From Eubacteriales bacterium (GTDB lineage Bacteria; Bacillota; Clostridia; Oscillospirales; CAG-272), in assembly GCA_045652645.1 (NCBI GenBank), contig JAZRUP010000179.1, positions 1-34,078 on the forward strand: a DNA stretch of 34,078 nucleotides, in the 5' to 3' direction. The position numbers and the translations under genes are program-made. The notes beneath the pieces were generated by a model that was given only the letters and a program-made list of their open reading frames with translations, was not told where the DNA came from and made no database searches. Shown here in pieces: positions 8,100 through 24,819 of this stretch; the stretch's first letter is position 1, and every line of letters starts with the position of its first letter.

Positions 8100-9584
8100 T
8101 TATTTGTGATATAATTTTTTAGTTTGATATTGCGGTTCGCATGTAAGATTTACGCCGAGTTTGCTGAAAACTCCGCTGTCCACCTGCGAAAGAATTACTG
8201 TTGAATGAGCCTCACAGCCTTTTAGCTTAGGGAGTTGCTCGAGCGCAAGCTTTGCTCTTTCGTCTGTCAGCGCACAGATTGAAAGCGCGATAAGGATCTC
8301 GTCCGTGTGCAAACGGGGATTGTGATTGCCCATATTGTTAACTTTAAGTTTTTGAATAGGTTCAATTATTGACGGGGAAATAAGATCGTATTTATCATCT
8401 ATATTTCCTAGTACCTTGAGTACGTTAAGGAGTGCCGCGGCTGAAGCGCCGAGAAGATTTGACGTCTTTCCCTCAACGATACGACCGTCATTTGTTTCAA
8501 TAGCGAGAGAAGGAGTTCCCGAATCTTTAGCTTTTTTAAGAGCAGCCTTAACCACGGGGCGTATTTCGGGAGAGATCTCAAGGGAGTTCATAAGAAGTTC
8601 AAGCTTCATTATCTCCGATTGCTCACTCATACCTTTTCTTACAGCACATAGCGCAGAATAATAGCGTCTTACTATCTCCTGCTTTGACGCGTCGCATACT
8701 GCGTCATTATCTGTTATGCAGTATCCTGCCATATTTACGCCCATATCAGTAGGGCTCTCGTAAGGGCTCTTACCGTATATCTGCGTGAACATAGCTTTAA
8801 GTACCGGAAAGATCTCTATGTCACGGTTGTAATTAACCGCCGTTTCGTTATAAGCCGCTAAATGATAAGGATCTATCATATTAAGGTCGTTAAGATCGGC
8901 GGTTGCTGCCTCATACGCAAGATTTACAGGGTGCTTTAACGGAAGGTTCCATACGGGGAAGGTCTCAAATTTTGCATACCCAGCATTGACGCCTCTTTGA
9001 TGCTCGTGGTAAAGCTGGGATAGGCATATCTCCATTTTTCCGCTTCCTGGCCCCGGCGCGGTTACGACTACAAGAGAACGCGTTGTTTCTATATATTGAT
9101 TTTTTCCAAACCCGTCCTCACTGATTATTTTAGCAACATTTGAAGGATAATCCGCGATGGGGTAATGACGGAAGACCTTTATGCCGAGCGCTTTAAGCTT
9201 TTTTTCAAAAAGCTTTGCGGCGGGCTGTCCCGAAAACATTGTAACCACAACGCTTCCGACATAAAGACCGATCTCTCGGAAAGCGTCGATAAGACGCATT
9301 ACCTCTTGATCGTAGGTAATGCCTGAATCTCCACGACGCTTGTTCTGCTCAATGGCGTTTGCAGAGATCGCAATGATTATTTCAGCGTCATCTTTCATCT
9401 CAAACAGCATTTTGACTTTGCTATCCGGTTGAAATCCCGGAAGAACTCTAGCCGCGTGGAAATCGTCAAAAAGCTTTCCTCCGAATTCAAGATAAAGCTT
9501 TCCGCCTATAGAGTTGATTCGGTCTCTGATGTTCTGAGTCTGAAGTTTTATATACTTATCGTTGTCAAAGCCGATTTTTAACAT
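8100..9584 (-). CDS. UPF0371/DUF1846-family protein of unknown function
   Basis: 494 aa. The N-terminus (GFDNDKYIKLQTQNIRDRI...GKLYLEFGGKLFDDFHAARVLPGFQPDSK) matches my memory of the conserved UPF0371 opening. It is 17 nt downstream of the CofE-like gene and 2 nt upstream of radC. Confidence 0.8.
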   Translation of the reverse strand: MLKIGFDNDKYIKLQTQNIRDRINSIGGKLYLEFGGKLFDDFHAARVLPGFQPDSKVKMLFEMKDDAEIIIAISANAIEQNKRRGDSGITYDQEVMRLIDAFREIGLYVGSVVVTMFSGQPAAKLFEKKLKALGIKVFRHYPIADYPSNVAKIISEDGFGKNQYIETTRSLVVVTAPGPGSGKMEICLSQLYHEHQRGVNAGYAKFETFPVWNLPLKHPVNLAYEAATADLNDLNMIDPYHLAAYNETAVNYNRDIEIFPVLKAMFTQIYGKSPYESPTDMGVNMAGYCITDNDAVCDASKQEIVRRYYSALCAVRKGMSEQSEIMKLELLMNSLEISPEIRPVVKAALKKAKDSGTPSLAIETNDGRIVEGKTSNLLGASAAALLNVLKVLGNIDDKYDLISPSIIEPIQKLKVNNMGNHNPRLHTDEILIALSICALTDERAKLALEQLPKLKGCEAHSTVILSQVDSGVFSKLGVNLTCEPQYQTKKLYHK

Positions 9585-9601
9585 GATAAATTTCTTTCTT
9601 G

Positions 9602-10792
9602 TCAGTTTGTATAATTGTCAAAATATCCTTGGATCCAAACGATGGGAGTACCCTTATCTCCGGAGCCAGAGGTGAGGTCGCAAAGAGAACCGATAAGGTC
9701 TGTAAGACGTCTTGGAGTCGTTCCTTGAGACACCATCTGACCTACAAGGTCTGAATCCTTGTTGCGGATATAGTTTGAAATAGCTGCCTTCAGCTCGTCG
9801 CCCTTAAGATCCGCGAAATCGTTGTCTGCGAGGTATTTGAGCTTGACTTCGTTAGGCTGACCGACAAGTCCCGAAGTGAAAGCGGGGGATACGACCGGGT
9901 CAGCAAGCTCCCATATTTTTCCGACGGGATCCTTAAACGCGCCGTCACCGTAGATCATAACCTCAACATGTTTACCTGTAGCGTCCGCAATTATTTTCTG
10001 GATCTCATCTACAACGGGCTGACCGTCGCGAGGGAAAAGCTTTACCGTATCCTCTGTTGCCTTGTTGCTTCCGAGAAGTCCGTAATTTTCGTTGTAACCG
10101 CTTCCGTCAACAGATTCTGTGAGTATCTCGTCGATTCCATAAACGGTTTCCGCGCCTGCTGCCTTAAGAAGACGTTTTGTGCGAGCACGGGTATGAATAT
10201 CGCAGTTGAGGACATTCTTCGTGTATTTAAGGATCGTGCGGCAGTCATTTGCGAGAATCACCTCAGCATCGCATCCGCAGTCGATTATGAGCTGCTTATA
10301 ATAGTCGATATAGTCAACACCCGTGAACGTATGCTTGATATAGCCGAATTTTTCTCTCCAATCAGCCTCTGTGAGCACATCTGTCCAAGGGTTTACCCCT
10401 GCTGCGTCAAGAAGATCGAGGTCAACAAGGTGGTTTCCTACTTCGTCCGAGGGGTAGCTGAGCATAATGTATATTTTCTTTGCGCCCATAGCGATTCCCT
10501 TAAGGCAAATGGAAAAACGGTTGCGGCTGAGGATCGGGAAAATTACTCCGATCTCTCCCGAGGGGAATTTTGATCTGATATCCGATGCGATCTGCTCGGT
10601 TGTTGCGTAGTTACCCTGAGCGCGGGCAACGACAGCTTCGGTCACAGCGACGACATCACGGTCTCTGATCTCAATGTTTTCCGATTTTGCGGCATCGAGC
10701 ACGCTTTCGGCAACAATTTTCGCGATGTTGTCCCCGCTGCGGATTATGGGGGCACGCACACCCCTTGAAACGGTTCCGATAAGTCTTTCCAT
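9602..10792 (-). CDS. CofE-like (F420-0:gamma-glutamyl ligase superfamily) protein, extended form
   Basis: 396 aa. The N-terminal block (SRGVRAPIIRSGDNIAKIV...RDRDVVAVTEAVVARAQGNY) resembles the CofE ligase fold signature (D-x-V-V-x-T-x-K-V-V-S-K-A-E-G type). GGAGG SD lies 6 nt before the ATG. Confidence 0.65.
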   Translation of the reverse strand: MERLIGTVSRGVRAPIIRSGDNIAKIVAESVLDAAKSENIEIRDRDVVAVTEAVVARAQGNYATTEQIASDIRSKFPSGEIGVIFPILSRNRFSICLKGIAMGAKKIYIMLSYPSDEVGNHLVDLDLLDAAGVNPWTDVLTEADWREKFGYIKHTFTGVDYIDYYKQLIIDCGCDAEVILANDCRTILKYTKNVLNCDIHTRARTKRLLKAAGAETVYGIDEILTESVDGSGYNENYGLLGSNKATEDTVKLFPRDGQPVVDEIQKIIADATGKHVEVMIYGDGAFKDPVGKIWELADPVVSPAFTSGLVGQPNEVKLKYLADNDFADLKGDELKAAISNYIRNKDSDLVGQMVSQGTTPRRLTDLIGSLCDLTSGSGDKGTPIVWIQGYFDNYTN

Positions 10793-12071: not shown

Positions 12072-13505
12072 ATGAAATACATTATAGAAGGAAGAAAGCC
12101 AGAGCAAATATTCAGATTTTTTGAGGAGATCTCAGCTATTCCTCACGGTTCGGGAAACGAAAAGGAGATTGCGGATTATCTTGAAAAATTCGCTAAGGAA
12201 AGAGGTCTTTTCTTTATTCACGACGAAATACACAATATATTTATAAGAAAGCCCGCTACAAATGGACGAGAGAATGAGCCGCCCTTGCTGTTTCAAGCGC
12301 ATACCGATATGGTTTGTGAGAAGAACGCGGATACGATTCACGATTTCATGACAGACCCGCTTGAGCTTTATCTTGACGGTAAATATCTTCGCGCAAGGGG
12401 AACTACACTCGGCGCGGATGACGGCATAGGTGTGACTATTATGCTCGCGCTTCTTGACGGAGCCGTAGAATCTCATCCTGAGATAGAGTGCCTTTTTACG
12501 GTGTCCGAGGAAACGGGAATGGACGGTGTCAACGGGTTTGATTTTTCTGTCGTAAAATCAAGAAAAATGATAAACCTTGATTCAGAGTCTATCGATCATG
12601 CTGTTGCAGGATGCGCGGGCGGTGTCAGAAACAATCTTATAATAGATATAAAAAAAGAGCCTGTGACGGCGGGGGCGGCTCTGAAAATAGTTCTAGGCGG
12701 ACTTGCGGGTGGACATTCGGGCGAAAATATCGCGGACGGACGCGCTAACGCAAACAAGCTTATGGGGCGTGTACTTCTTGCGATTTCAAATATAGATCAT
12801 AGACTGGTTTCACTTAACGGAGGCGGAAAATCAAACGCCATCCCCAGAGAAGCAACTGCTGTGATAATAACAGAAAAACCCGACGAAGTATCGTGTTGCA
12901 TAAAAAAACTTGCCGCTGATATTGCGTTTGAGCTTTCGAGTGAAGATAAGTCCTTTTTCCTAACTTGCGAAAAGACAGAGCTCCCAAATGAGTCGTTTGA
13001 CAAGGCTACTACTGAGGTCGCTGTAAGACTTCTCGGCGTCGTTGACAACGGAGTTTTTGAGATGAGCAAGAAAACGGAAGGGTTCGTTGAGTTTTCGAGA
13101 AATCTCGGAGTTATCACGACTGACGAGGATAAGCTCACATACACTTTTTTTGCCCGTTCGGGTATCGAGGCTCAGCTTGACTCGTCAAACAAAGAGCTTG
13201 AAGCTCTCGCAAAGCTTTGCGGCGCCACAGTAGAATGTTCTGAAAGATATGGGGGCTGGGCATTTGCTCCCTCGTCACCAATCAGGGATGATTATATGGC
13301 TGCGTACAAAAAAGTCACGGGGAAAGATCTTGTCGTTATACAAATACACGCAGGTCTTGAGTGCGGCATAATAAAGGCGAAGATACCAGATATGGATATC
13401 ATTTCGGTAGGTCCCAACGCGTTCGGGATCCACTCGCCCGACGAGGCTCTGGATCTTGATTCGGTCGAGGTTCTTGCGTCTGTTATTGAGGAGATCCTTT
13501 CTTAA
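12072..13505 (+). CDS. pepD: Aminoacyl-histidine (Xaa-His) dipeptidase, peptidase M20C
   Basis: M20 metal-ligand blocks QAHTDMV, GADDGIGV and SEETGMDG, at PepD length. I prefer the ATG at 12072 (GGAGG at 12063-12067) over the TTG at 12060 used in the ORF track. Confidence 0.9.
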   Translation: MKYIIEGRKPEQIFRFFEEISAIPHGSGNEKEIADYLEKFAKERGLFFIHDEIHNIFIRKPATNGRENEPPLLFQAHTDMVCEKNADTIHDFMTDPLELYLDGKYLRARGTTLGADDGIGVTIMLALLDGAVESHPEIECLFTVSEETGMDGVNGFDFSVVKSRKMINLDSESIDHAVAGCAGGVRNNLIIDIKKEPVTAGAALKIVLGGLAGGHSGENIADGRANANKLMGRVLLAISNIDHRLVSLNGGGKSNAIPREATAVIITEKPDEVSCCIKKLAADIAFELSSEDKSFFLTCEKTELPNESFDKATTEVAVRLLGVVDNGVFEMSKKTEGFVEFSRNLGVITTDEDKLTYTFFARSGIEAQLDSSNKELEALAKLCGATVECSERYGGWAFAPSSPIRDDYMAAYKKVTGKDLVVIQIHAGLECGIIKAKIPDMDIISVGPNAFGIHSPDEALDLDSVEVLASVIEEILS

Positions 13506-13507
13506 GA

Positions 13508-14179
13508 TCACATAAATTCGTTTAACTTATATCCGTCTTTGAATACTATAAGTCGTCGTTCGGTGATCCGGGCGGCGGCTTTATTTATTGTGTTTATGTG
13601 TACTGCAAGGCAGTTGTCGGTCATTGTTGGTAAGATTGACCTTAAAGAGGAAAGATCCAGTTCGTTTGGATATGCCTTTGTTGTAAGTCTTAATATAATG
13701 TAGTTGTTTTTTGAAAGCGAAAGACGTTCGCCCAAAAGAGTTACGCATTTTCTTCCTCTGCCAAGATCGAGTTGATTCACTTTTATAAAAGGAGGATACA
13801 GGGCAACAAACGCGTGGATCAGATCATCTGATGAGCAGGGGAGATCTATCTGCCTGTGGCTGCCCTCAATATCAAGATAAAGAGATGGCGAATCCTCGGA
13901 TTTTTCAACGGCTGTGAGTATTTTCGCTTCAGGTGTTCGAAGGGCAATTGCAGAAACGCACTCTTTAGCAAGGATCTCGGAATTTTCTGGGGAATGAACG
14001 ACCGCAATATCAGCTTTTGATCTCTTTATAATATCAACGGCGTTTTCATAATTTGACGACATAAAAATATATCCAATATGATTTGCGGTATCCGAACAGA
14101 ATTTTATGAATTTTTGATCGTTTGAAATTATTATTACCATTTTTTCGTACAGTTCTTTTGATTTTTTATATTGTATCAC
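13508..14179 (-). CDS. Atypical receiver-like + OmpR/PhoB-type winged-helix DNA-binding protein (orphan)
   Basis: The C-terminus (LLGERLSLSKNNYIILRLTT...CLAVHINTINKAAARITERRLIVFKDGYKL) follows the trans_reg_C pattern. The N-terminus from MVIIISNDQ looks like a receiver beta1 strand, but the beta3 position reads IAVVH instead of ending in Asp. The start is uncertain: GTG at 14179 is the maximal ORF, while ATG at 14140 (MVIIISND) fits the domain boundary and the predicted promoter better. Confidence 0.55.
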   Translation of the reverse strand: MIQYKKSKELYEKMVIIISNDQKFIKFCSDTANHIGYIFMSSNYENAVDIIKRSKADIAVVHSPENSEILAKECVSAIALRTPEAKILTAVEKSEDSPSLYLDIEGSHRQIDLPCSSDDLIHAFVALYPPFIKVNQLDLGRGRKCVTLLGERLSLSKNNYIILRLTTKAYPNELDLSSLRSILPTMTDNCLAVHINTINKAAARITERRLIVFKDGYKLNEFM

Positions 14180-14198
14180 TTCTTTGACGACAAGTCAA
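14170..14198 (-). promoter_or_regulatory. Possible sigma-A-type promoter for the receiver-like regulator
   Basis: Reverse strand reads TTGACT (14198-14193), a 17-nt spacer, then TGaTACAAT (hexamer 14175-14170). The -10 box overlaps the GTG at 14179, which argues for the ATG at 14140 as the real start. Confidence 0.4.
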
Positions 14199-14250
14199 TT
14201 AAAATTTTCCGTTTTTTTCTAAAGATTTCGTCTTAAAAAGAACTAAACTA

Positions 14251-14279
14251 TTGACAATTTTGAAAAAATATTGTATAAT
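14251..14279 (+). promoter_or_regulatory. Sigma-A-type promoter for rny
   Basis: Consensus TTGACA (14251-14256), a 17-nt spacer, then TATAAT (14274-14279). Confidence 0.55.
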
Positions 14280-14357
14280 CTATATAATAATTCAATAAAA
14301 TGCCAAAAATATTGGCGTTTTGCTGAATACATAAATTAAAATATAAGGAGGTGCTGA

Positions 14358-15902
14358 ATGGGATATCTTATAGGTGCCATTATTGGAATCGTCGTCGGTG
14401 CCGTTATCGGAGTGTTTGTCGGTATCGTTTCTCGCAAGAAAGTAGCCGAAAAGGCAATAGGTTCTGCTGAGGTCCACGCCAAGAAGTTGGTTGAGGACGG
14501 CGAAAAGCAGGCTGAAACTCTGAAAAAAGAGGCTTTGCTTGAAGCTAAAGAGGATATACTCCGCCAACGCAATGAGGCTGACCGAGAGATCAAGGAGCGT
14601 CGCTCCGAGGTCACAAGAATGGAACGAAGACTTGCTCAAAAGGAAGAAACACTTGACAAGAAAACCGAGCAGCTTGAACGCAAGAACGAGCAGCTTGACA
14701 AGAGTATTCACGAAACAGAGCTTGAGCGCGCCGAGATAGACAAGGTCTTAAGACAACATCTTAAAACACTTGAGGAAATTTCGGGTATCAGCGTTGACGA
14801 CGCTAAAGCGCAGCTCTTTGAGCGAGTTGAGTCCGAGACCAAGTATGAGCTTGCTCAGAGAATGATCGAACTTGAAAATGAATTCAAAGAGGAAGCGGAC
14901 ACCAAAGCGAGAAATATTATTTCTCTGGCTATTCAGCGTTCTGCTGCCGATCAGGTCGTGGAATCTACTATCTCGGTTGTAAATCTTCCGAGTGAGGAAA
15001 TGAAGGGACGTATAATCGGACGAGAGGGGCGCAACATTCAGAAGCTCGAGACCCTCACGGGAGTTGAGCTTATCATTGATGATACCCCCGAGGCGATAAC
15101 TCTTTCGGGATTTGATCCCGTAAGACGCGAGATCGCAAGACTCGCTCTTGAAAAGCTTATCGCTGACGGACGCATTCATCCGGCAAGAATTGAGGAAATG
15201 GTAGACAAGGCGACACATGAAGTGGAAGCCGCTATCAAACAGGCAGGTGAGCGAGCAACCTTTGAGGTTGGCGTTCACGGTATCAATACCGAGCTTGTAA
15301 GATTACTCGGAAGGCTACGGTACAGACAGAGCTACGGTCAGAACGTGCTCAAGCATTCGGTAGAGGTCGCATTCCTTGCGGGAATAATGGCTGACGAGCT
15401 TGGACTTGACAGTACGCTCGCAAGACGCGCGGGCTTGCTTCACGACATTGGTAAAGCATTCCCACACGACGTTGAAGGCTCACACGTTGAGATCGGTGTA
15501 AACGCCGCTAAGAAATATAAGGAAAGCCGCGAGGTCGTACACGCTATCGAGGCTCATCACAATGACGTTGAACCCAAGACAATTATCGCAATTCTCGTTC
15601 AGGCGGCAGACGCTATATCCGCGGCAAGACCCGGTGCCAGACGAGAAGATCTTGAAAACTACATCAAGCGACTTGAAAAGCTTGAGGAGATCGCAGTCAG
15701 CTTTGACGGCGTTGAAAAAGCGTTCGCTATTCAGGCGGGACGTGAGCTTCGCGTAATGGTGAAGCCTGAGGACGTTAACGATGACGCGATGAAATTTATT
15801 GCACGAGACATGGCTCAGAAGATCAAGAACGAGGTCAAGTACCCCGGTCAGATCAAGATAAACGTTATCAGAGAGAGCCGTGCCGTCGATTATGCAAAAT
15901 AA
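14358..15902 (+). CDS. rny: Ribonuclease Y
   Basis: 514 aa. N-terminal TM helix ([21 protein letters not shown]), long coiled-coil, KH domain ([15 protein letters not shown]) and HD domain ([10 protein letters not shown] ... IEAHH). AAGGAGG SD lies 6 nt upstream. Confidence 0.97.
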
Positions 15903-16014
15903 TCGAAGCTCGTATATTCCTAACCCGTCGTACGACGTGATGATATAGATAACATAAAATCACGATGGTATCAATTGCGGCTCTGCCGTTTAGACTATAA
16001 AGAATAGAAGAGTA

Positions 16015-16054
16015 GGGGCTGACGCAAATGCGTCAGCCCCGATTTCTGTTTGTT
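16015..16054. terminator. Bidirectional rho-independent terminator shared by rny and the helicase operon
   Basis: A perfect 11-bp GC-rich stem (ggggctgacgc 16015-16025 / gcgtcagcccc 16030-16040) around a 4-nt loop, followed by gatttctgtttgtt. The reverse strand also has a pyrimidine/U-rich tract after the stem. Confidence 0.7.
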
Positions 16055-16055
16055 G

Positions 16056-16067
16056 AGAAAGGTTTTG
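16056..16067 (+). repeat. Left copy of the 12-nt direct repeat AGAAAGGTTTTG flanking the three-gene operon
   Basis: It is identical to 21438-21449. It sits between the terminator hairpin and the helicase stop codon (16075). Confidence 0.4.
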
Positions 16068-16074
16068 TAAAGAA

Positions 16075-18312
16075 TTAATACTCATTTAGTATATCCTTGA
16101 TTCTCTCAATTACCTCGTCCGTGCGGAGGCGGTCGGCGGCGTACTGACGGCGAAGCAGGGAATCAGGGATGAAAGTATCGTACTTCTCAAAAAGCGGCAC
16201 CTCTCCCGACGCGACAAGAGCTTCCGTGTCAATTCCATCGCGCTCGATTTTGTCCGCAAGTCCTTTTATGAACTCATAATCTGATGCGTGCTCCATTTTG
16301 AAGGTCATATAACAGCAGCCGTCAAACTCAAGTCCCGTTATTTTATATTTTCCGGCGTTGCCCCCGATATATTTGCGGAGCGTTCTGAACGAGCGCGTTC
16401 CGAGCCACGGGAAAAGACACCATGTATATCCTCCGAGGCATACCATAGAATGCTCAAGCATTCCGCTGTTTCTTGCGGCGTTTCTCGCTTCATCAAGTCG
16501 TCGCATAGCGTTGGGTTTAAGATAAGGATAAACTGTATCCTCCATCAGTACCTGCTTCATTCTGAGGAGTATTTTCGTGTCGATCTCACCGTAGTCGCCC
16601 GGCCACGAGATCTCCATTTTTCCTTCAACTGCTTTGACGTATATAAGCTTGCGCTTTATATCAAGCTCCTCTACCTCCCAAACCTTTCCCGCAAGCGCGA
16701 ACCTGTCACCAACAGGGGGCGGTGTAGTTATAGTTCCTATTTCATCGGAGCCGCAACGTACGGTGAAGTCCTCCGTGTCCTTAAATACGGCGTAAAACTT
16801 AAAGCTTCCGAGTAAACGCTCGCCCGCAAGACCGATAATAAGACCTTTTTCCTCGGTCATTTCGAGAAAATCGTTCTGAACCATAGAAACGATAAGCGTG
16901 CGGAGATCCTCGCGAGTTATCTCGGTAAAAGGAGGCATCGCGAGTATTATCTCGGCAAGGCGCTTCGGTGTCATCTCACCTGAGGCAGCGAGAGTGCTGA
17001 GTATCTGATGGAAAAGCAGGCTGAAGGGCATTTTCTTGCGCTTTGGAGGCTCGATGTAGCGTTCCTCAATATAAAGCTGTATTATGGCTATAGCGCGAAG
17101 TAGCTCCCATGGAATTATCTGAGGCAGAGGAGCATTCGGAAGCGCTTCCTCCTCGCGCATTACCATCATCATCTCTGGCGGGTCTCCCCTACGTCCCGAG
17201 CGTCCGAGTCTTTGCAAAAAGCTTGAAACGGAGCAGGGCGCGCCTATATGTCCTATGCGTTCGAGCTTGCCTATGTCAATACCAAGCTCCATCGTGACCG
17301 TCGCGCAGGTGACAGCGCGTATTTCCTCATCTTTCATTTTAGCCTCGGCTTCCTCCCGCAAAGACGCGGAGAGATTTCCGTGGTGAATGAGGAAAATGTC
17401 GGGCTCTTTTCTTGCCTTCGCTATCTGACGAAGGGTTGCTGTGAGGTATTCCGTTTCCTCTCTTGAATTTGAGAAAATGAGGGCCTTTTTGCTCTTGACG
17501 CAGTCGTACATATATTCATATCCCGCGTCGATCTCGGCGGCAGGTTGCTTCGGCAGCTTGAATTTTATTTCCTCCGTCGCATCCTGAATGGGGTTAAGAT
17601 TTTGAATGTAAAAATGCTCAAGTCCGAGTCGCCAATGAATTTTTTCTACGGGAATCTTCGGGATATCCACCATGGAGGCGTTTCCGCCCGATAGCCAATC
17701 AGCGGCTTTTACGGGATCGCCGAGCGTTGCCGAAAGACCTATTCTTCGCGCGCGTCTGCCTATAAGTCTGTCAATACGGGAGAGCTGACAGATTATCTGA
17801 TTTCCTCTGTCGGATGCCGTGAGCGTATGAATTTCGTCGATTATTATGAAACGAAGGTCTGAGAAAAGTCTTATTATGTCATTTGAGCGGTTAATAAGAA
17901 GACTTTCAAGCGATTCGGGAGTTATTTGAAGTATTCCTTTCGGGTCTTCAAGGAGCTTTTTTTTGTGCGATCGCGCGACGTCTCCGTGCCAATGAGTGAC
18001 CTTGATACCGGTTTCGTCAAGCAGACCGTCGATGCGCAAAAACTGGTCGTTTATGAGGGATTTCAGAGGCGCGATATAGAGAACTCCGACGCTCTGCGGC
18101 ATATCGCGGCAAAGCTCGGCAAGTATCGGAAAAAACGCCGCCTCGGTCTTACCGCTTGCGGTCGATGACGTAAGAAGCAGATCGTTATTCGTTTCGAATA
18201 TCGTTTTTGCCGCCTCTATCTGAACGTCGCGAAGGCTGTCCCACGAGTGACTGTAAATATATTCTCGGATAAAGTCGGGAAATTTCAGAAAAATTCTGTC
18301 GGCTTCTGTCAT
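16075..18312 (-). CDS. sngC: Superfamily-2 DEAH-box helicase, Lhr/BrxHI-like (SngC-like component)
   Basis: 745 aa. Motif I TASGKT (18145-18162), Ia YIAPLKSLINDQ, II IIIDEIH, III LSATLG, V/VI TVTMELGIDIG and FLQRLGRSGRRG. About 340 aa of C-terminal extension follow. AAGGAG SD lies 6 nt upstream of the ATG at 18312. Confidence 0.85.
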   Translation of the reverse strand: MTEADRIFLKFPDFIREYIYSHSWDSLRDVQIEAAKTIFETNNDLLLTSSTASGKTEAAFFPILAELCRDMPQSVGVLYIAPLKSLINDQFLRIDGLLDETGIKVTHWHGDVARSHKKKLLEDPKGILQITPESLESLLINRSNDIIRLFSDLRFIIIDEIHTLTASDRGNQIICQLSRIDRLIGRRARRIGLSATLGDPVKAADWLSGGNASMVDIPKIPVEKIHWRLGLEHFYIQNLNPIQDATEEIKFKLPKQPAAEIDAGYEYMYDCVKSKKALIFSNSREETEYLTATLRQIAKARKEPDIFLIHHGNLSASLREEAEAKMKDEEIRAVTCATVTMELGIDIGKLERIGHIGAPCSVSSFLQRLGRSGRRGDPPEMMMVMREEEALPNAPLPQIIPWELLRAIAIIQLYIEERYIEPPKRKKMPFSLLFHQILSTLAASGEMTPKRLAEIILAMPPFTEITREDLRTLIVSMVQNDFLEMTEEKGLIIGLAGERLLGSFKFYAVFKDTEDFTVRCGSDEIGTITTPPPVGDRFALAGKVWEVEELDIKRKLIYVKAVEGKMEISWPGDYGEIDTKILLRMKQVLMEDTVYPYLKPNAMRRLDEARNAARNSGMLEHSMVCLGGYTWCLFPWLGTRSFRTLRKYIGGNAGKYKITGLEFDGCCYMTFKMEHASDYEFIKGLADKIERDGIDTEALVASGEVPLFEKYDTFIPDSLLRRQYAADRLRTDEVIERIKDILNEY

Positions 18313-18324
18313 ATTGACTCCTTT

Positions 18325-19689
18325 TTATATGTCTATGTCGTTCGGGTCGAAATCCGCCTTTTTCGGCGGCGCTGTCTGTACGGGGACAGGTTCTTCTGTG
18401 TCAGGTTCAGTCTTAAGTGTTACAGCGGTTCCCGCGATGTCGGAAAAACAGACGTTTTCATTCTGCATTAAAATATTAAGCACAGTCATATAATCACGTA
18501 TCATCTCACGCGGGGTTATCATAGCGTCGGCTCCAGCCCTGGACAGACAAATTTTAAGAAATTCGACCATCTCCTCCTGCGAGATACGCGGTGTCCAAGA
18601 ATAATTTTGACCATGGAGCTTCGTAATTCTTACGATAAGCGCGAAAAGCTCATCATCGGTAAGACGTCGGAGTCTTATAACAGGACCTATGAGGTTTTTG
18701 AACCCTTCTGCTTCAAAACGACTGTCGCAAAGTCTTGAGCGCAGTGCTTCATAGCCGAAAAGTCCCCGTCTTGTGTCCTCTAAGAATTGCGGAGTTCCGC
18801 CGAAGATTATCTCAAGTCCCGGAGCGCGTCCTTGAAGGGTGTCGTTGAACATTGAAAGTATTTTTTCGTAATTGTTTTCGCGGCTGACTCGGTGAGTTAT
18901 TTTGTAGAGATTCACGCACTCATCAATAAACACGACGAGTCCGCGGTATCCCATACGCTTAACGAGAGTTGCCCAAAGTTTCAGAAAATCGTACCAGTTT
19001 TCGTCGTCGATAATGACTGAAACAGAGAAGCCGAGGTCGCGTCTCGCCTCTGTCTTGGTTGAAAACTCTCCGCGAAGCCAACGGATACAGGCGCTCTTCT
19101 TTTCTTCGTCGCCACTCGTGTAAGCTGAATAATATTCGGATATAACTCGGGCGAAATCAAAGCCTCCTACAAGATCCTCGACCTCTCGAATCTCCCCGTA
19201 AATGCGAGAATTAAGCTCATGGATAAATGCTTCGCTTTCGGGCTCGTAACCCTGTCCCGCTATCTTTGATTGAATATCACTTATCCAACGCGCGATTATT
19301 TTAGGCAGCGCGCCTCCGTCGGGAGAGGCTTTTGACGCGAGATTTTTCATAAGCTCACGATAAGTTGCGACTCCGCTTCCTCCCGTACCGTAAAGTCTTC
19401 TCTCAGGAGAGAGATCAGCATCGGCGGTTATAAATCCGCGCTCAAGAGCGTAGCCTCGTATGAGCTGGATAAGAAAGCTCTTTCCGCTTCCGTAACGTCC
19501 TATAAGAAAGCGCATAGCTCCGCCGCCGTCGTTGACAAGCTCGAGGTCGGAGAGTATCGCGGATATTTCGTCCGCACGTCCTATCGCTATATATGGCGCG
19601 CCGCTTCTCGGTACAACACCCGCGGAAACGGATGCGAGAAGGGAAGACAGGACACGTTTAGGTATTTTCTTTATATTTTCGTCTGTCAT
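18325..19689 (-). CDS. sngB: DUF2791/BrxD-like P-loop ATPase (SngB-like component)
   Basis: 454 aa. Walker A GRYGSGKS (19477-19500) and Walker B GLVVFIDE. The overall layout resembles BREX-associated ATP-binding proteins. The start overlaps the upstream stop (ATGA at 19686-19689). Confidence 0.8.
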   Translation of the reverse strand: MTDENIKKIPKRVLSSLLASVSAGVVPRSGAPYIAIGRADEISAILSDLELVNDGGGAMRFLIGRYGSGKSFLIQLIRGYALERGFITADADLSPERRLYGTGGSGVATYRELMKNLASKASPDGGALPKIIARWISDIQSKIAGQGYEPESEAFIHELNSRIYGEIREVEDLVGGFDFARVISEYYSAYTSGDEEKKSACIRWLRGEFSTKTEARRDLGFSVSVIIDDENWYDFLKLWATLVKRMGYRGLVVFIDECVNLYKITHRVSRENNYEKILSMFNDTLQGRAPGLEIIFGGTPQFLEDTRRGLFGYEALRSRLCDSRFEAEGFKNLIGPVIRLRRLTDDELFALIVRITKLHGQNYSWTPRISQEEMVEFLKICLSRAGADAMITPREMIRDYMTVLNILMQNENVCFSDIAGTAVTLKTEPDTEEPVPVQTAPPKKADFDPNDIDI

Positions 19690-21323
19690 TTTTCAAAAAT
19701 CTCCCTGTAATCTTCAATTATGGTGTATCCAAAGCCGCAGTCCTCGAGGATAATGTCGCCAAAAACATCCGCGGCGGCATCATTTATTGAGTCGGCAATC
19801 GCATCGGACATCATGGAAAGCTTTTTGGCTATCTCTTTTTGCAACGTAAAGTTTTCGTGCATCGCGGCTTCTATAAATTCGTATTTTTCTTTGAGTATCT
19901 CTTTTAATTGACTTACCTCGTCCGTGTTTTCAACAGAAATATCGGAGCAGCTTTCGATAACTTGAGGCGCTTCATATTCCGGATATCCTGACTCTTTTTC
20001 CTCGAAAGCATCTTCAAGCATCGCTGTAGTGTTCCAAGAGCTTTCCTCGATAAACTCGGCGTTCTTTAGCGAAAACTCCGTTTTCGGAGGCTCGTATAGC
20101 TTGTCGTATTCCTCGAGGGGGCGTTCTTTTTCGGTGCGGGTATGGCGAATTACGGGCAACTCGCGCGAGAAATAGGCGTCAAGCGCCCCGGTTATTTCTT
20201 TTGAAAGACCAAACACGCTGAGTCTTGATTTTACGCCGAGATGCGCTCGTATTTTGTTTTCCGAATATTTTACTATGTCGGCAATAATAAAGCGCAGCTC
20301 GTGAGAGCTTGAAAACGAGCAAAACTCGATTTCGATACGGCGTTTGATATCAGAGGCGCAAAGCGCGCCGGGATATGCATCGCGGGTTATAAAATTGTTT
20401 TCAAGAGTCGCGCCCGTGATGAGCTTCGTTCCGTCACTTGAGATATTAATGGAGTGAGAAAGCGCGCCCGTTATATGCTTGTCGTAAACTTGAATAGCAT
20501 CGCCGACTGCAAATTTACTCTTTTTATAGTCGTAAGCCGAGCAGTAACGTATAAGCAGTTTCGCGTAAGAATCCGTTGCTCCAACACCTTTAAAATAAGC
20601 GTAAAACTCTTTTAGGGTAGAAGCGTCAGCCAAGGCAGGATGTGCGTTTGTCGGAGGGGGTAGTTGGTGAAGTATCGAATAATCGCATATCCAATCTCCA
20701 AGAAGACGGTCAAGCTTCGGATAAGACTTCCTGTAGTGCTTGTGTATTTCGCAAAGAAGATCCTGACCTTCCTTGACATCGGAGATATCTCCGAGATTGA
20801 TCGTTTCATATATCAAAAGCAGAATATAGCTGTAATCACATTCTGGAAAGCAGCCGCGCTTGACGGAATCCCTGAAATACAGATACCACGAAAGCTGAGC
20901 GCTGTTTAATTGAACGTATTGAGGAACGTAGGAAAAATACGGAACATGAGGGCAAGGGGGAGCGCTCATATTTTTGTATCTTATGGCGTCCTTTTTGAAG
21001 TCCTCATAATAATTATAGCTGTTTTTCCATTTGTATATTTTAACCTTGCTGATGAGAGGCGATACCGGAGAATATTCAAGCTCGGGTTTCTGAGATTCTG
21101 TGGGGGCAACGGGAGCCGCGACTTTGACTAAACCTGTGAGATTAAGCCTTGATTCGCCATTCGGTCTTTCGGTCGCATCTGATATTATATCAACCGCGCT
21201 TACGTCCGGCACGCTCCGTACGTGAGTCGGAAAATTACGCGGCTTTTGTGTTTTAGGTATAAGTTTTTCAATAGCCCAAAAATCGTTTTTCGCGTCGATT
21301 TTTCTGTCTTGCAAACCTCTCAC
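19686..21323 (-). CDS. sngA: TerB-N and TerB-C domain protein (SngA-like component)
   Basis: 545 aa. The central block (PYFSYVPQYVQLNSAQLSWYLYFRDSVKRG...YSYILLLIYETINL) fits the TerB_N pattern. The C-terminal block (KKLSMMSDAIADSINDAAADVFGDIILEDCGFGYTIIEDYREIF) fits TerB_C. There is no ATG near the 5' end, so the start is GTG at 21323 or TTG at 21314. Confidence 0.8.
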   Translation of the reverse strand: MRGLQDRKIDAKNDFWAIEKLIPKTQKPRNFPTHVRSVPDVSAVDIISDATERPNGESRLNLTGLVKVAAPVAPTESQKPELEYSPVSPLISKVKIYKWKNSYNYYEDFKKDAIRYKNMSAPPCPHVPYFSYVPQYVQLNSAQLSWYLYFRDSVKRGCFPECDYSYILLLIYETINLGDISDVKEGQDLLCEIHKHYRKSYPKLDRLLGDWICDYSILHQLPPPTNAHPALADASTLKEFYAYFKGVGATDSYAKLLIRYCSAYDYKKSKFAVGDAIQVYDKHITGALSHSINISSDGTKLITGATLENNFITRDAYPGALCASDIKRRIEIEFCSFSSSHELRFIIADIVKYSENKIRAHLGVKSRLSVFGLSKEITGALDAYFSRELPVIRHTRTEKERPLEEYDKLYEPPKTEFSLKNAEFIEESSWNTTAMLEDAFEEKESGYPEYEAPQVIESCSDISVENTDEVSQLKEILKEKYEFIEAAMHENFTLQKEIAKKLSMMSDAIADSINDAAADVFGDIILEDCGFGYTIIEDYREIFEK

Positions 21324-21346
21324 CCGCCTTTCTTCTGTAAATAAAT

Positions 21347-21375
21347 ATTATATCACAAAAAACTTCATTTGTCAA
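21347..21375 (-). promoter_or_regulatory. Sigma-A-type promoter of the three-gene (Sng-like) operon
   Basis: Reverse strand reads consensus TTGACA (21375-21370), a 17-nt spacer, then TGaTATAAT (extended -10; hexamer 21352-21347), about 20 nt upstream of the start codon. Confidence 0.55.
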
Positions 21376-21437: not shown

Positions 21438-21449
21438 AGAAAGGTTTTG
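21438..21449 (+). repeat. Right copy of the 12-nt direct repeat AGAAAGGTTTTG
   Basis: It is identical to 16056-16067 and lies about 60 nt beyond the -35 box of the operon promoter. Confidence 0.4.
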
Positions 21450-21525
21450 CTATGAAATTTACCCATCAAAATACTGTTATTTATGTTATTTATGTGTATT
21501 TGAGGTGAAATGTTTCTTCTTTTCC

Positions 21526-21554
21526 TTGAAAGTATAAAAGAAATATGTTATAAT
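21526..21554 (+). promoter_or_regulatory. Sigma-A-type promoter for the lipoprotein/DUF5685/J-protein operon
   Basis: TTGAAA (21526-21531), a 17-nt spacer, then TGtTATAAT (hexamer 21549-21554). Confidence 0.5.
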
Positions 21555-21587
21555 TATAATAATATGATTTTATTGAGGTATTTTTTG

Positions 21588-22772
21588 ATGAAATTAAGAT
21601 TGACTGTATTACTTCTCTCTGTGTTGATGTTGTTCACCACGGTGCTTTCGTCGTGTGGAACGTATGATGACGGATCTTCGGCAACCACACCGCAGACAAC
21701 AACGACACCTAAGGTCGGTTTTGTTGATCCCAATTATCCTTTAATGGATCTTATGGCAGAGGATCTGACGAAGTATGTAAACATTCCCGATCTTTCTGAT
21801 CTGAAAATAGAATATAGCGTTTACGTTGATGACGAGACCCTTGAAAAGAAGCTTTCCGAGCTTGCTAAAAAGAATTCTTATTATATAGCTGAGCCCTCAA
21901 GAGAAACGCTTGAAGGAGATACGCTATGTGTTAAATACGTAGGAAGAATAGACGGTGTTGCTTTTTCGGGAGGAAGCGCGGAAACCGCTTTTGTTTCTCT
22001 TACCGAAAACAATGGCTATATTGATGGCTTTGCTAAGGATCTTTACGGAATAGCTCCCGGAACTACGGTATATACGACCGTAAAATTTCCCGATGATTAC
22101 GGGGTCAAGGAGGTAAACGGCAAGGAGGCTGTGTTTGAAATTACGGTTAAGGACATTGTCGGAGAGTACGGTTTTACCGATGAAACAATCTCCGAGTACA
22201 GCGCGGGCACATATACTTCTTACGAATCCTTCAAGGAAGAATACAGAAATAATCTTATCGTTGAAAACTTAAAAGCGTACGAGAATGAGATATATGATAT
22301 CGCGCTTGATACTCTTGAAAGCGCCGCTACTGTCATAACTCTTCCAAAAGCTCACGTTGACAGTTATTTTAATATTTATTATAATGACGAGCGTGCTTAT
22401 TATGAAGCGTATGCGGATCAATTCAGGGACACCTACAATATAGCGAGCTTTGAGGCTTATCGCAAATTCTTTGGAATAACCGACGAATGGCTGAAGGGAA
22501 GCGCGGAGGTGTCTGTTGCCGAGGACCTTGTTCTTGTTTCCGCGGCAAAAGCATTGGGACTTGAATTTACGAAGGATGAATACGATGACCTTATAGAGTC
22601 GCTGGCTGAAAATTGGGGATTTGATTCTGTTGAGCTTTTCGTTTCTTATTACGGAAAAGAATATCTTAAGCTTTGCGTGATTAAAGATCAAGCGGTCAAG
22701 GCATTTATAGCTACTGCTACAGTTGATTCGGATTACGACGAATATAAGCATCTTTTAGGCGAGGAAAATTAA
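21588..22772 (+). CDS. Lipoprotein with a trigger-factor-type FKBP PPIase domain and trigger-factor C-terminal-like domain (extracytoplasmic foldase candidate)
   Basis: Start chosen at ATG 21588 (GAGGT 8 nt upstream), giving MKLRLTVLLLSVLMLFTTVLSSC with lipobox LSSC. The PPIase block (EGDTLCVKYVGRIDGVAFSGGSAE...GYIDGFAKDLYGIAPGTTVYTTVKFPDDYGVKEVNGKEAVFEITVKDI) closely follows the trigger-factor PPIase pattern. The track's 21510 start adds a non-signal leader. Confidence 0.8.
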   Translation: MKLRLTVLLLSVLMLFTTVLSSCGTYDDGSSATTPQTTTTPKVGFVDPNYPLMDLMAEDLTKYVNIPDLSDLKIEYSVYVDDETLEKKLSELAKKNSYYIAEPSRETLEGDTLCVKYVGRIDGVAFSGGSAETAFVSLTENNGYIDGFAKDLYGIAPGTTVYTTVKFPDDYGVKEVNGKEAVFEITVKDIVGEYGFTDETISEYSAGTYTSYESFKEEYRNNLIVENLKAYENEIYDIALDTLESAATVITLPKAHVDSYFNIYYNDERAYYEAYADQFRDTYNIASFEAYRKFFGITDEWLKGSAEVSVAEDLVLVSAAKALGLEFTKDEYDDLIESLAENWGFDSVELFVSYYGKEYLKLCVIKDQAVKAFIATATVDSDYDEYKHLLGEEN

Positions 22773-22773
22773 A

Positions 22774-23673
22774 ATGTTCGGATACGTAAGACCGTATATT
22801 CCCGAGCTTCGAGTGAGGGATAACGAATATTTTAGAGCAATATACTGCGGACTTTGCCGCTCTCTCGGGAAATGCACGGGAACGGTGTCCCGTATGACGC
22901 TCAATTACGATTTCGTCTTTGCCGCGTTGCTCAGACTCGCGGCAACGGGAGAAACTACTGAAATTTCTGCTAAACGCTGTATAGCTCATCCAATAAAAAA
23001 GCGTCCAATGGCAACGCCATGCGTAGAACTCGATTTTTGCGCACGCATAGGAATTCTTCTTTCTTTTCATAAAATCACCGATGATATTACCGACGAGCGA
23101 GGATCCAGGCGTTTTCGCGCAAAATTTCTTAAAGCTCTTATGAAGGGAATGAGAAAACGCGCTAAAAAGGAGCTTGTTGAAGGAGATAAAATAATTTCCT
23201 ACGGACTTGCTCTTATGTCAGATATGGAAAAAACCAAGATACCGTCTGTTGATTCGTTTGCTGATGAATTCGGCAAGATAATGAGTGCGCTTTTGTCGAT
23301 AGGACTTAATGGAGCGACGGCAAGAATAATAAAGAAGATCGGATTCCATCTCGGCCGTTGGCTATATATAATAGACGCGGCAGATGATTATTACGATGAC
23401 ATAGAAAAGGGAAGATTCAACCCGTTAGCTATTATGTATGAAGAAAAGCCTCTTGATGAGGCGCAAAAATACAACATTTTCAATGCCTTGTCTGCGGAGC
23501 TTATGGAAATATACTCGGCATTCGAGCTTGTTGATAAAGCTGACGGTCAGGACGAGATATTCAATATAATTGATAACATATTGCGCCTCGGTATGCCACA
23601 CGCGGCAGCGACAGCGCTTGAGCTTGAAAAAGATAATAACGGTAATAAAAAGATAGGAGATAATAATGACTGA
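22774..23673 (+). CDS. Conserved hypothetical protein, DUF5685-like
   Basis: 299 aa. The N-terminus ([36 protein letters not shown]...[11 protein letters not shown]) matches my recollection of the DUF5685 signature. It starts 1 nt after the upstream stop and overlaps the next gene by 8 nt. Confidence 0.65.
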
Positions 23674-24271
23674 TCCATATAAGGTTCTCGGCGTTTCTAA
23701 AGACGCCTCAGATGACGAGATAAAGAAAGCCTATCGCGAGCTTGCGAGAAAATATCACCCCGACAAGTATCAGGATTCAGATCTTGCCGATCTCGCGAGC
23801 GAGAAAATGAAGGAAGTCAATGCGGCTTACGACCAGATACAGGCAGAACGCGCGAACAAGGGCAACACCAAGGCAAATTACGGCTCAGGCGTTAATAATG
23901 ATAGCGCATCGGGTAAAGACGCTTACAGAAGAGTAAGAAATCTTATAAATAACAGACAGCTTGCCGAGGCGGAATCAATACTTATGGGAATACCTCCTGA
24001 GGACCGCGACGCCGAATGGGATTTCCTTTTTGGAACGGCTCTTATGGCAAGAGGGCATTACATTGATGCGCAGAATTATTACGATCGCGCATGCGCAAGA
24101 GATCCCGGTAATGCGGAATATGCCAACGCAAGAGAAATGTTAAGACGCCATACTGCAAATTATAACGGCGGTTATACTATGTCAAGAAGCTCCTCCTGCG
24201 GTATTTGCGACTGTTGCGCAACGCTTATGTGTATTGACTGTTGTTGCGGTTGCTCGGGAGGCGGTTGTTGA
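23666..24271 (+). CDS. J-domain (DnaJ-like) protein with a TPR-like middle region and a C-terminal cysteine string
   Basis: 201 aa. J domain with HPD ([33 protein letters not shown]). TPR-like segment ([28 protein letters not shown]). Tail [27 protein letters not shown]. Confidence 0.85.
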
Positions 24272-24819
24272 TGAAACGCACAGGCAAAAAAATAAAAAGT
24301 CTTGCGCTTTGCTCGATGCTGGCGGCACTCGGAGTTGTTGTGCTTCTGCTCGGATCTTTTATTGAGGTGCTTGACCTCAGCGCGGCTATGTTCGCCTCTC
24401 TTATAGTGGTGATTGCCGTAATAGAGGCGGGAAAATATTGGCCGTGGCTAACGTATGCGGTTACATCTTTGACAGCGCTTCTTCTTTTACCGTATAAATT
24501 ACCTGCCGTTATGTATCTTTTGGCGGGATACTATCCGATAATAAAAGAAAAAATAGAGAAGCTTCCGAAACCCATTGCTTGGATCATAAAGCTTTCCTTA
24601 TTCAACTTGTCTCTCGCACTGGTTTTGCTTGTGCTGAAGCTGTTTTTGCCGGGAGTTTCGATAGAGCTTGTTCCTGGACTTAAAGATATTTACACATATC
24701 TCATATATTACGCCTCGGGAAATATTATTTTTATACTTTACGACATTCTTTTGACAAGACTTGTTTCTTTCTATGTTTTTAAGCTGCGAGACCGTCTTGG
24801 GATAGGTAACAAAAAATAA
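24271..24819 (+). CDS. Small polytopic membrane protein of unknown function
   Basis: Start at ATG 24271 overlaps the J-protein stop by 1 nt (TGATG). About 183 aa with 5-6 hydrophobic helices and a positively charged N-terminus ([10 protein letters not shown]). Confidence 0.7.
   Translation: MKRTGKKIKSLALCSMLAALGVVVLLLGSFIEVLDLSAAMFASLIVVIAVIEAGKYWPWLTYAVTSLTALLLLPYKLPAVMYLLAGYYPIIKEKIEKLPKPIAWIIKLSLFNLSLALVLLVLKLFLPGVSIELVPGLKDIYTYLIYYASGNIIFILYDILLTRLVSFYVFKLRDRLGIGNKK

Follow-up and report, generated by a model that had tools for sequence, protein, structure and literature searches.

A complete, self-contained Shango operon among housekeeping genes of a gut Clostridia chromosome

What is the role of a tight cluster of three minus-strand genes located between the RNase Y gene rny and a foldase gene cluster in the chromosome of a gut Clostridia bacterium? 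The cluster lies in contig JAZRUP010000179.1 of a Eubacteriales bacterium (assembly GCA_045652645.1; Oscillospirales, CAG-272), of which positions 1 to 34,078 (hereafter the window) were analyzed together with homologous loci from other genomes, designated by L numbers. A preliminary description of the same DNA had taken the cluster for a Shango-type anti-phage system. As judged from the sequence, positions 16015-21375 of the window form a complete, self-contained Shango operon in the order sngA-sngB-sngC (Table 1), and a Shango defence operon is very probably the best explanation of the locus. The manner in which its products might act is graded separately below.

Shango was reported and validated in Escherichia coli by Millman et al. 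(2022), with the tentative suggestion that its TerB protein takes part in membrane surveillance, and independently in Pseudomonas aeruginosa PA14 by Johnson et al. (2023), who observed 10-100-fold drops in plating efficiency for several Pseudomonas phage families and presented no mutants. As cited by both studies, the triad was first predicted by Anantharaman et al. (2012). All validated examples come from Proteobacteria, and the mechanism is described as unknown in the literature of late 2025 and in a review of February 2026, in agreement with the preliminary description on phage restriction and mechanism.

To establish the family identity of the three proteins, profile searches were run against Pfam (at gathering cut-offs), the PADLOC Shango models and the NCBIfam equivalogs. 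In Pfam, SngA matched TerB_N (52.4 bits, cut-off 25; 7.7e-14) and TerB_C (37.0 bits, cut-off 26.3; 4.9e-9), SngB matched BrxC_BrxD, formerly DUF2791 (530 bits, 7e-159), and SngC matched DEAD (3.5e-29), Helicase_C (1.5e-15), ResIII and, weakly, WH_Lhr, these being the families foreseen from the bare sequence. In PADLOC, the top models were SngA (PDLC03958, 4.2e-44; protein residues 101-544 on model positions 75-524 of 528), SngB (PDLC03959, 3.1e-168; model positions 4-419 of 439) and SngC (PDLC03960, 1.8e-237; model positions 6-715 of 720), each for its own subunit, as expected of a Shango-type system. BrxD (8.7e-51) and BrxHI (1.8e-125) were the clear second-best models of SngB and SngC, confirming the proposed kinship of these two genes with type 2 BREX, and were exceeded in bit score three times and twice by the respective Shango models. 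SngA is far from its PADLOC model, with 150 bits and no match in the N-terminal 100 residues. No NCBIfam model was passed by either of the two enzymes. The motifs quoted in the preliminary description were all recovered and mapped, including in SngB a Walker A (GSGKS, residues 67-71) and a Walker B (VVFIDE, 252-257), and in SngC helicase motifs I (TASGKT, 51-56), II (DEIH, 159-162), III (SAT, 194-196) and VI (QRLGRSGRRG, 367-376), so that each of the three proteins matches its Shango model and the Walker and helicase motifs are intact.

Assignment to Shango is based on these top-ranking, near full-length PADLOC matches, on the Pfam thresholds passed, on the gene order of PA14 and on the occurrence of the trio on a Clostridium plasmid. 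The E. coli and PA14 systems consist of the same three families in the same order (a TerB_N/TerB_C protein, a DUF2791/BrxD-like ATPase and an Lhr-like DEAH helicase), and the window proteins are collinear with the Shango models over nearly their full length, encoded in a standalone three-gene operon with a promoter of its own. An annotated plasmid of Clostridium estertheticum carries the same trio in the same gene order, adjoining a relaxase and an IS110 transposase. Unlike the validated systems, the window operon belongs to an uncultured gut Clostridia host rather than to a proteobacterium, and its activity is predicted from homology. The locus is a further example of an already named system that a standard defence-annotation pipeline of the DefenseFinder/PADLOC type would call, and its value in this respect is incremental.

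As expected of Shango, the genes lie side by side on the same strand and share one promoter and one terminator. Their tight packing was found as previously described, with the stop codon of sngA and the start codon of sngB overlapping in an ATGA (19686-19689), and with a gap of 12 nucleotides (nt; 18313-18324) between sngB and sngC that contains an AAGGAG. The promoter noted upstream of sngA, a strong one of the sigma-70 type, was equally confirmed, matching 12 of 12 consensus positions in addition to the extended -10 TG, and was the top promoter-like site in a 6-kb scan. Its -35, TG and -10 elements show no variation among four homologous cassettes, including that of L084, which has neighbours unrelated to those of the window and has nonetheless kept the promoter. 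On the evidence of this alignment, the promoter moves together with the Shango cassette.

The start of sngA was revised. A mechanical list of open reading frames (ORFs) had placed it at GTG 21323, giving an ORF of 545 amino acids (aa) at 19686-21323. In the alignment of the four upstream regions, a single column located 4 nt after the GGTGAG holds TTG in the window (21314), GTG in L082 and ATG in L084, and the near-identical contig L081 has a gene call of 542 aa. Because of these aligned start codons and this gene call, GTG 21323 is most likely not the true start, and TTG 21314 is preferred instead.

The GC-rich hairpin at the other end of the operon, also noted before, has an 11-bp stem with 9 GC pairs, and the RNA fold of positions 15990-16074 reaches -26.8 kcal/mol (z = -7.5 versus shuffles). 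Its T-tract is broken on either strand, and it is likely to act as a bidirectional intrinsic terminator for rny and sngC. The L084 and L086 cassettes each end in a strong hairpin of their own, unrelated to that of the window. Within the species, non-synonymous and synonymous differences number 0 and 7 in SngB and 4 and 16 in SngC, pointing to purifying selection. Given the ATGA overlap, the short gap with its Shine-Dalgarno sequence, the conserved promoter, the strong hairpin, the intact motifs and this selection pattern, sequence comparison establishes the Shango operon as intact, under purifying selection and a functional unit. The locus offers a compact, intact Firmicute Shango with native promoter, corrected start, terminator and mapped catalytic residues.

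Table 1. Features of the Shango operon and its borders in the window.
Feature	Position	Strand	Description
sngA	19686-21314	minus	542 aa from TTG 21314; TerB_N + TerB_C protein, fast-evolving subunit
sngB	18325-19689	minus	454 aa; BrxD-like ORC/Cdc6-type AAA+ ATPase
sngC	16075-18312	minus	745 aa; superfamily 2 (SF2) Lhr/BrxHI-like helicase
Operon promoter	21347-21375	minus	TTGACA, 17-nt spacer, TG-extended TATAAT
sngA Shine-Dalgarno GGTGAG	21319-21324	minus	Invariant in the four-locus alignment
sngC Shine-Dalgarno AAGGAG	18318-18323	minus	Read in the sequence, inside the 12-nt sngB-sngC gap
GC-rich hairpin	16015-16040		Between convergent rny and sngC; strand unassigned
Foldase promoter-like site	21526-21554	plus	TTGAAA, 17-nt spacer, TATAAT with TG; 11/12

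In order to compare the evolution of the subunits, six complete cassettes were aligned in 15 pairs, which are not independent of each other. SngA had the lowest identity in all 15, with 23-59% versus 44-85% for SngB and SngC (59/83/85, 31/72/69 and 39/79/75 percent for SngA/SngB/SngC in example pairs), and evolves about twice as fast as its partners. Between the window type and the L010 or L015 type, SngB and SngC are about 70% identical and SngA about 30%. Diverged SngA proteins keep nonetheless a collinear TerB_N...TerB_C architecture. Between the window and a 99.2% identical strain, non-synonymous and synonymous changes number 9 and 12 in SngA and 7 and 33 in the six flanking genes combined, and the contrast of SngA with all other genes (9/12 versus 11/56) gave a Fisher p of 0.018 in this small test on a single strain pair. 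Both the rank of SngA in every pair and its excess of non-synonymous changes within the species point to SngA as the specificity or sensor subunit. About 120 of 545 SngA residues are predicted to be disordered and are highly variable, and the two disordered segments explain part of the effect, but identity in the folded blocks is likewise only about 50-65% on average.

The SngA structure was modelled with AlphaFold2 (AF2) from 54 aligned sequences, reaching a mean predicted local distance difference test score (pLDDT) of 80. Disordered, hypervariable stretches occupy approximately residues 1-80 and 441-467, and folded TerB_N, central and TerB_C regions lie between and after them. The helix at residues 338-359 (YSENKIRA) is the most conserved of SngA. 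Foldseek searches of this model against the PDB and BFVD (viral structures) returned no match at E<=1e-3, and sequence and profile searches of SngA against the PDB returned nothing significant. Local matches to LysR-type helix-turn-helix domains recurred over some 70-80 residues, in both structure libraries, with probabilities up to 0.84 and 0.91 and with non-significant E values of 0.4-0.6. These would fit the three-helix plus hairpin end of TerB_C, the matched residues not being part of the output. As far as the model can tell, nothing among solved or viral structures is related to SngA save for this small winged-helix-like module.

The designation TerB-type used in the preliminary description holds for the TerB_N and TerB_C domains and fails for the TerB core domain (PF05099), which a permissive Pfam scan did not detect in SngA even at E<=10. 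As applied to SngA, TerB is just the name of the flanking domains. The window operon shares these domain names, and the historical prediction of a role in biological conflict, with the Ter proteins of tellurite resistance and stress response and with Bunzi and Dionysus, two defence systems that contain TerB, and differs from them in having no TerB core, TerC, TerD or other Ter gene and no transmembrane or pore-forming partner. A tellurite-resistance module was rejected on account of the missing TerB core and Ter genes.

Effector domains were sought in several ways. Neither SngA nor the C-terminal part of SngC showed a nuclease, protease, TIR, SIR2, PLD or pore domain in permissive Pfam searches, and no such domain emerged when the individual proteins and the SngA profile were searched against PDB sequences, or when the AF2 models were compared by Foldseek with the PDB and BFVD. 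A hidden effector domain was ruled out at the level of these Pfam, PDB sequence and AF2/Foldseek searches. No transmembrane segment was predicted in SngA, SngB or SngC, the Kyte-Doolittle maximum over 19 residues being <=1.2.

SngB has no solved relative in the PDB by sequence. The chains closest to the SngC helicase core are those of Lhr (5v9x, 9e-32; 7lhl) and MrfA (6znp). In the AF2 model of the part of SngC that comes after the core (residues 380-745, pLDDT 83), a winged helix, a beta-barrel of five strands and an alpha+beta domain can be distinguished, and a fold search of this C-terminal region confirmed the winged helix and found no nuclease. The modelled layout agrees with that published for BrxHI, in which a winged helix-turn-helix, a HAS beta-barrel and a domain resembling Lhr-CTD come after the SF2 core (2026 Nucleic Acids Research study, PMC12839542). 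In the same study, BrxD is a standalone ORC/Cdc6 AAA+ ATPase that is tightly linked to BrxHI and is proposed to load or activate this helicase (PMC12839542). Also, the Hachiman study grouped SngC with BrxHI, DruE and DpdJ in a separate clade of defence-associated SF2 proteins.

Resembling type 2 BREX, the window encodes an ATPase of the ORC/Cdc6-type AAA+ fold family (Pfam BrxC_BrxD) and a helicase in which winged-helix, beta-barrel and Lhr-CTD-like parts join the SF2 core as described for BrxHI, and in both systems the two genes are tightly linked. In contrast to type 2 BREX, the window pair is not accompanied by PglZ, PglX, BrxC or PglW, falls below the BrxD equivalog cut-off and has a TerB_N/TerB_C protein as partner. 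Lhr and MrfA/YprA, which provide the solved structures closest to the SngC core and are echoed in its weak WH_Lhr match, differ from SngC in that SngC scores far below their family cut-offs, has a different C-terminal region and belongs, together with SngA and SngB, to an accessory operon.

In the working model with the best support, Shango would be a soluble, nuclease-free machine acting on DNA. The proposal is tentative, and draws on the linkage of BrxD with BrxHI, on the Lhr and MrfA relatives and BrxHI-like C-terminus of SngC, on the lack of a recognizable effector or transmembrane segment, on the divergence of SngA and its excess of non-synonymous changes, and on the weak but recurring helix-turn-helix matches of SngA. 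SngA, as the variable subunit, with a fold not solved before and a small winged-helix-like module, would recognize a phage-specific cue (a DNA or replication intermediate, or else a phage protein) and set the range of phages seen. SngB, as a BrxD-type AAA+ ATPase of the ORC/Cdc6 class, would oligomerize with ATP and load or activate SngC, and this Lhr/BrxHI-type SF2 translocase would then track along phage DNA by means of its extra winged-helix, beta-barrel and C-terminal DNA-binding domains, disrupting replication or exposing the phage DNA to host nucleases. The expected outcome would be a modest, 10-100-fold protection, such as the systems of E. coli and P. aeruginosa are reported to give.

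In its most specific form, in which SngA is a rapidly evolving infection sensor whose alleles, some 30% identical, sit on SngB and SngC proteins some 70% identical within a nuclease-free Shango where SngB loads SngC, the model is possible though doubtful. If it were true, exchange of sngA alleles among Clostridial cassettes would retarget the defence, giving a handle on TerB_N/TerB_C sensing.

Several considerations weigh against the reading of the locus as an active defence operon of this kind. As a limit on its identity, the anti-phage activity is extrapolated from proteobacterial homologues, and the model leans on an analogy with BrxD and BrxHI that is itself only proposed. SngA divergence could reflect relaxed constraint, with no arms race needed, because of its many disordered and variable residues, and the within-species test is small and confined to one strain pair. 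Also, the winged-helix matches of SngA are not significant, a new catalytic fold may exist in SngA despite the lack of a recognizable nuclease, and peripheral membrane association of the protein would be compatible with the published idea of TerB membrane surveillance.

This last idea gives rise to the alternative that fares best, although it too is improbable. Here the Shango identity is kept and SngA would be a TerB-like amphitropic sensor of membrane or ion stress that detects perturbation of the envelope upon infection, with the ATPase and the helicase running an abortive or growth-arrest response. Published speculation ties both Shango and Bunzi to membrane surveillance by TerB, and the TerB-containing Dionysus system acts on the early infection vesicles of jumbo phages. 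SngA, however, contains TerB_N and TerB_C only, hydrophobic segments are lacking in all three proteins, the operon has neither a pore former nor a membrane effector of another kind, and both partners of SngA belong to DNA-handling families. A SngA protein with neither membrane segment nor TerB core argues for a soluble sensor or adaptor that works alongside proteins handling DNA, and speaks against the notion of membrane surveillance that recurs in reviews.

The genomic context of the Shango operon was examined in order to gain insight into its history. The nearest species-level genome has an RNase Y 87% identical to that of the window, and a 99.2% identical contig occurs in another sample. 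The operon is flanked by rny on one side and by a foldase-DUF5685-DnaJ cluster on the other. Among 23 related species with RNase Y at least 69% identical, a few of whose loci offer little sequence downstream of rny, Shango occurs near rny in only three (L003, L010 and L015), and the closest relative (L001) is without the cassette. In L013 the DUF5685-DnaJ cluster is the direct neighbour of rny, neither the cassette nor the foldase being present. The cassette is missing from most related species and is accessory rather than core, as had been supposed.

The preliminary description had further pictured a cassette dropped among housekeeping genes. The accessory status and the housekeeping flanks are borne out, but the recency that this wording implies is overstated. 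The divergent sngA-foldase junction is common to L082/L083 (SngA 77%) and L086/L087 (SngA 55%), the rny-side position recurs in three other species, and the window contains no tRNA, integrase or transposase as a mark of a mobile element. The cassette GC content (0.474) compares with 0.436 +/- 0.038 for the other genes. Recent horizontal transfer was ruled out by the lack of tRNA, integrase and transposase genes and by this unremarkable composition. In view of the shared junctions, the missing mobile-element genes and the lack of a GC anomaly, the cassette is read here as an old accessory resident subject to repeated loss and rearrangement, and not as a fresh insertion. As a whole, Shango is nevertheless mobile to judge from database records, SngB homologues being found in 697 plasmid records, 542 of them conjugative. 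No SngB homologue was found in 50,697 phage records, and a phage-borne Shango was rejected on this count.

The chromosomal setting could also be taken to suggest that the cassette is a housekeeping DNA-repair module, in which an Lhr/MrfA-type helicase and accessory proteins serve the host genome. The cassette indeed has core genes on either side (rny; foldase-DUF5685-DnaJ), junctions conserved across species and neither a mobile-element gene nor a GC anomaly, and the solved chains closest to SngC are those of the repair helicases Lhr and MrfA/YprA. Against this, the NCBIfam models TIGR04121, PRK13767 and PRK09751 scored 217, 193 and 110 bits versus cut-offs of 850, 849 and 1496, the Shango models scored far higher, the cassette is missing in most related species including the closest, SngB homologues reside on numerous and largely conjugative plasmids, the quick divergence of SngA is atypical of repair factors, and homologous trios restrict phages in experiments, making a repair module very unlikely. 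Least credible of all is the view that the locus derives from a type 2 BREX (Pgl) system as its remnant or satellite, with BrxD and BrxHI as an orphan pair behind a gene unrelated to them. The second-best PADLOC matches and the BrxC_BrxD assignment favour this view, and opposed to it are the three- and twofold higher bit scores of the SngB and SngC models, a score of 170.4 bits versus the 350-bit cut-off of the NCBIfam BrxD model (NF033438), the lack of PglZ, PglX, BrxC and PglW among the 24 other window proteins (Pfam and PADLOC, 34 kb), and the translational overlap of sngB with an sngA that is itself full-length.

Being a Shango operon, the cassette differs from validated relatives in that it lies outside defence islands and hotspots and is stably linked to housekeeping neighbours across species. 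In 12 other relatives the genes downstream of rny encode ATP synthase, phosphotransferase system (PTS), transporter, histidine kinase and SbcCD-like proteins, the only defence-like occupant being a TIR-domain protein in L025. An rny-flanked defence hotspot was rejected, the downstream genes being ordinary in these 12 relatives bar L025. Within the window, ten further proteins gave no PADLOC match to other defence families, and Pfam assigned the rest to housekeeping families only. By gene content, the cassette is not part of a defence island or hotspot. The protein of L025, a more distant relative, is 1136 aa long (12918-16328, minus strand) and carries an N-terminal TIR or ThsB-like TIR domain. 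Its gene lies some 1.4 kb downstream of rny and may serve in defence.

The cassette and its promoter lie between the two copies of an imperfect direct repeat of 19 nt (16056-16074 and 21438-21456; 16 of 19 positions identical), with a 12-nt exact core, AGAAAGGTTTTG, that occurs at these two sites only in the 34-kb window. In shuffles of the two intergenic regions, a direct match of at least 12 nt arose in 9 of 2000 trials (p ~0.005). The motif is missing from L082, which has the same sngA-foldase junction, and the five other complete cassettes have no bracketing repeats longer than 8-11 nt. Owing to both observations, an insertion scar was discarded and the repeat is probably due to chance.

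The foldase gene next to sngA was listed as an ORF from ATG 21510 (21510-22772, plus strand). Its true start is probably ATG 21588, because from this codon the product begins with MKLRLTVLLLSVLMLFTTVLSSCG, a lipoprotein signal peptide with lipobox, and because the gene call on contig L081 is 394 aa, in agreement with this start. The foldase promoter-like site (Table 1) would therefore lie just upstream of the start and not inside the gene, and the 273-nt sngA-foldase spacer would contain two divergent strong promoters. Since it combines FKBP_C and Trigger_C domains, the foldase is predicted to be a secreted, trigger-factor-like lipoprotein peptidyl-prolyl isomerase.

Beyond it, window positions 22774-24819 encode a DUF5685 protein, a DnaJ/TPR protein and an unannotated protein of 180-192 aa, which travel together in L009, L013, L082 and L086. 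The lipoprotein foldase usually precedes this cluster, which in L082 and L086 is followed by an extracytoplasmic function (ECF) sigma factor, a vWA protein and DUF4349. With respect to rny, the cluster is found downstream in the window and in L013, and upstream in L009.

Three ORFs of 192-249 aa had no Pfam or PADLOC match (13508-14179, minus; 25-774, plus; 24241-24819, plus). The one of 223 aa adjoins rny and is rich in AT (GC 0.38). By eye, its C-terminus resembles a winged-helix response-regulator output domain.

Elsewhere in the window, positions 5730-7322 (plus strand) encode a secreted 530-aa protein which, because of its CHAP, SH3_3 and Listeria-Bacteroides repeat domains, is predicted to be a cell-wall hydrolase-like surface protein. 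Relatives encode repeat proteins of this type that are far longer (1105 aa in L004, 1506 aa in L022 and 1472 aa in L009). Finally, positions 8100-10792 (minus strand) encode a DUF1846 protein (494 aa, E 2e-176) adjoining a F420-0:gamma-glutamyl ligase-like protein (396 aa), a family unexpected in gut Clostridia that may have a role unrelated to F420.

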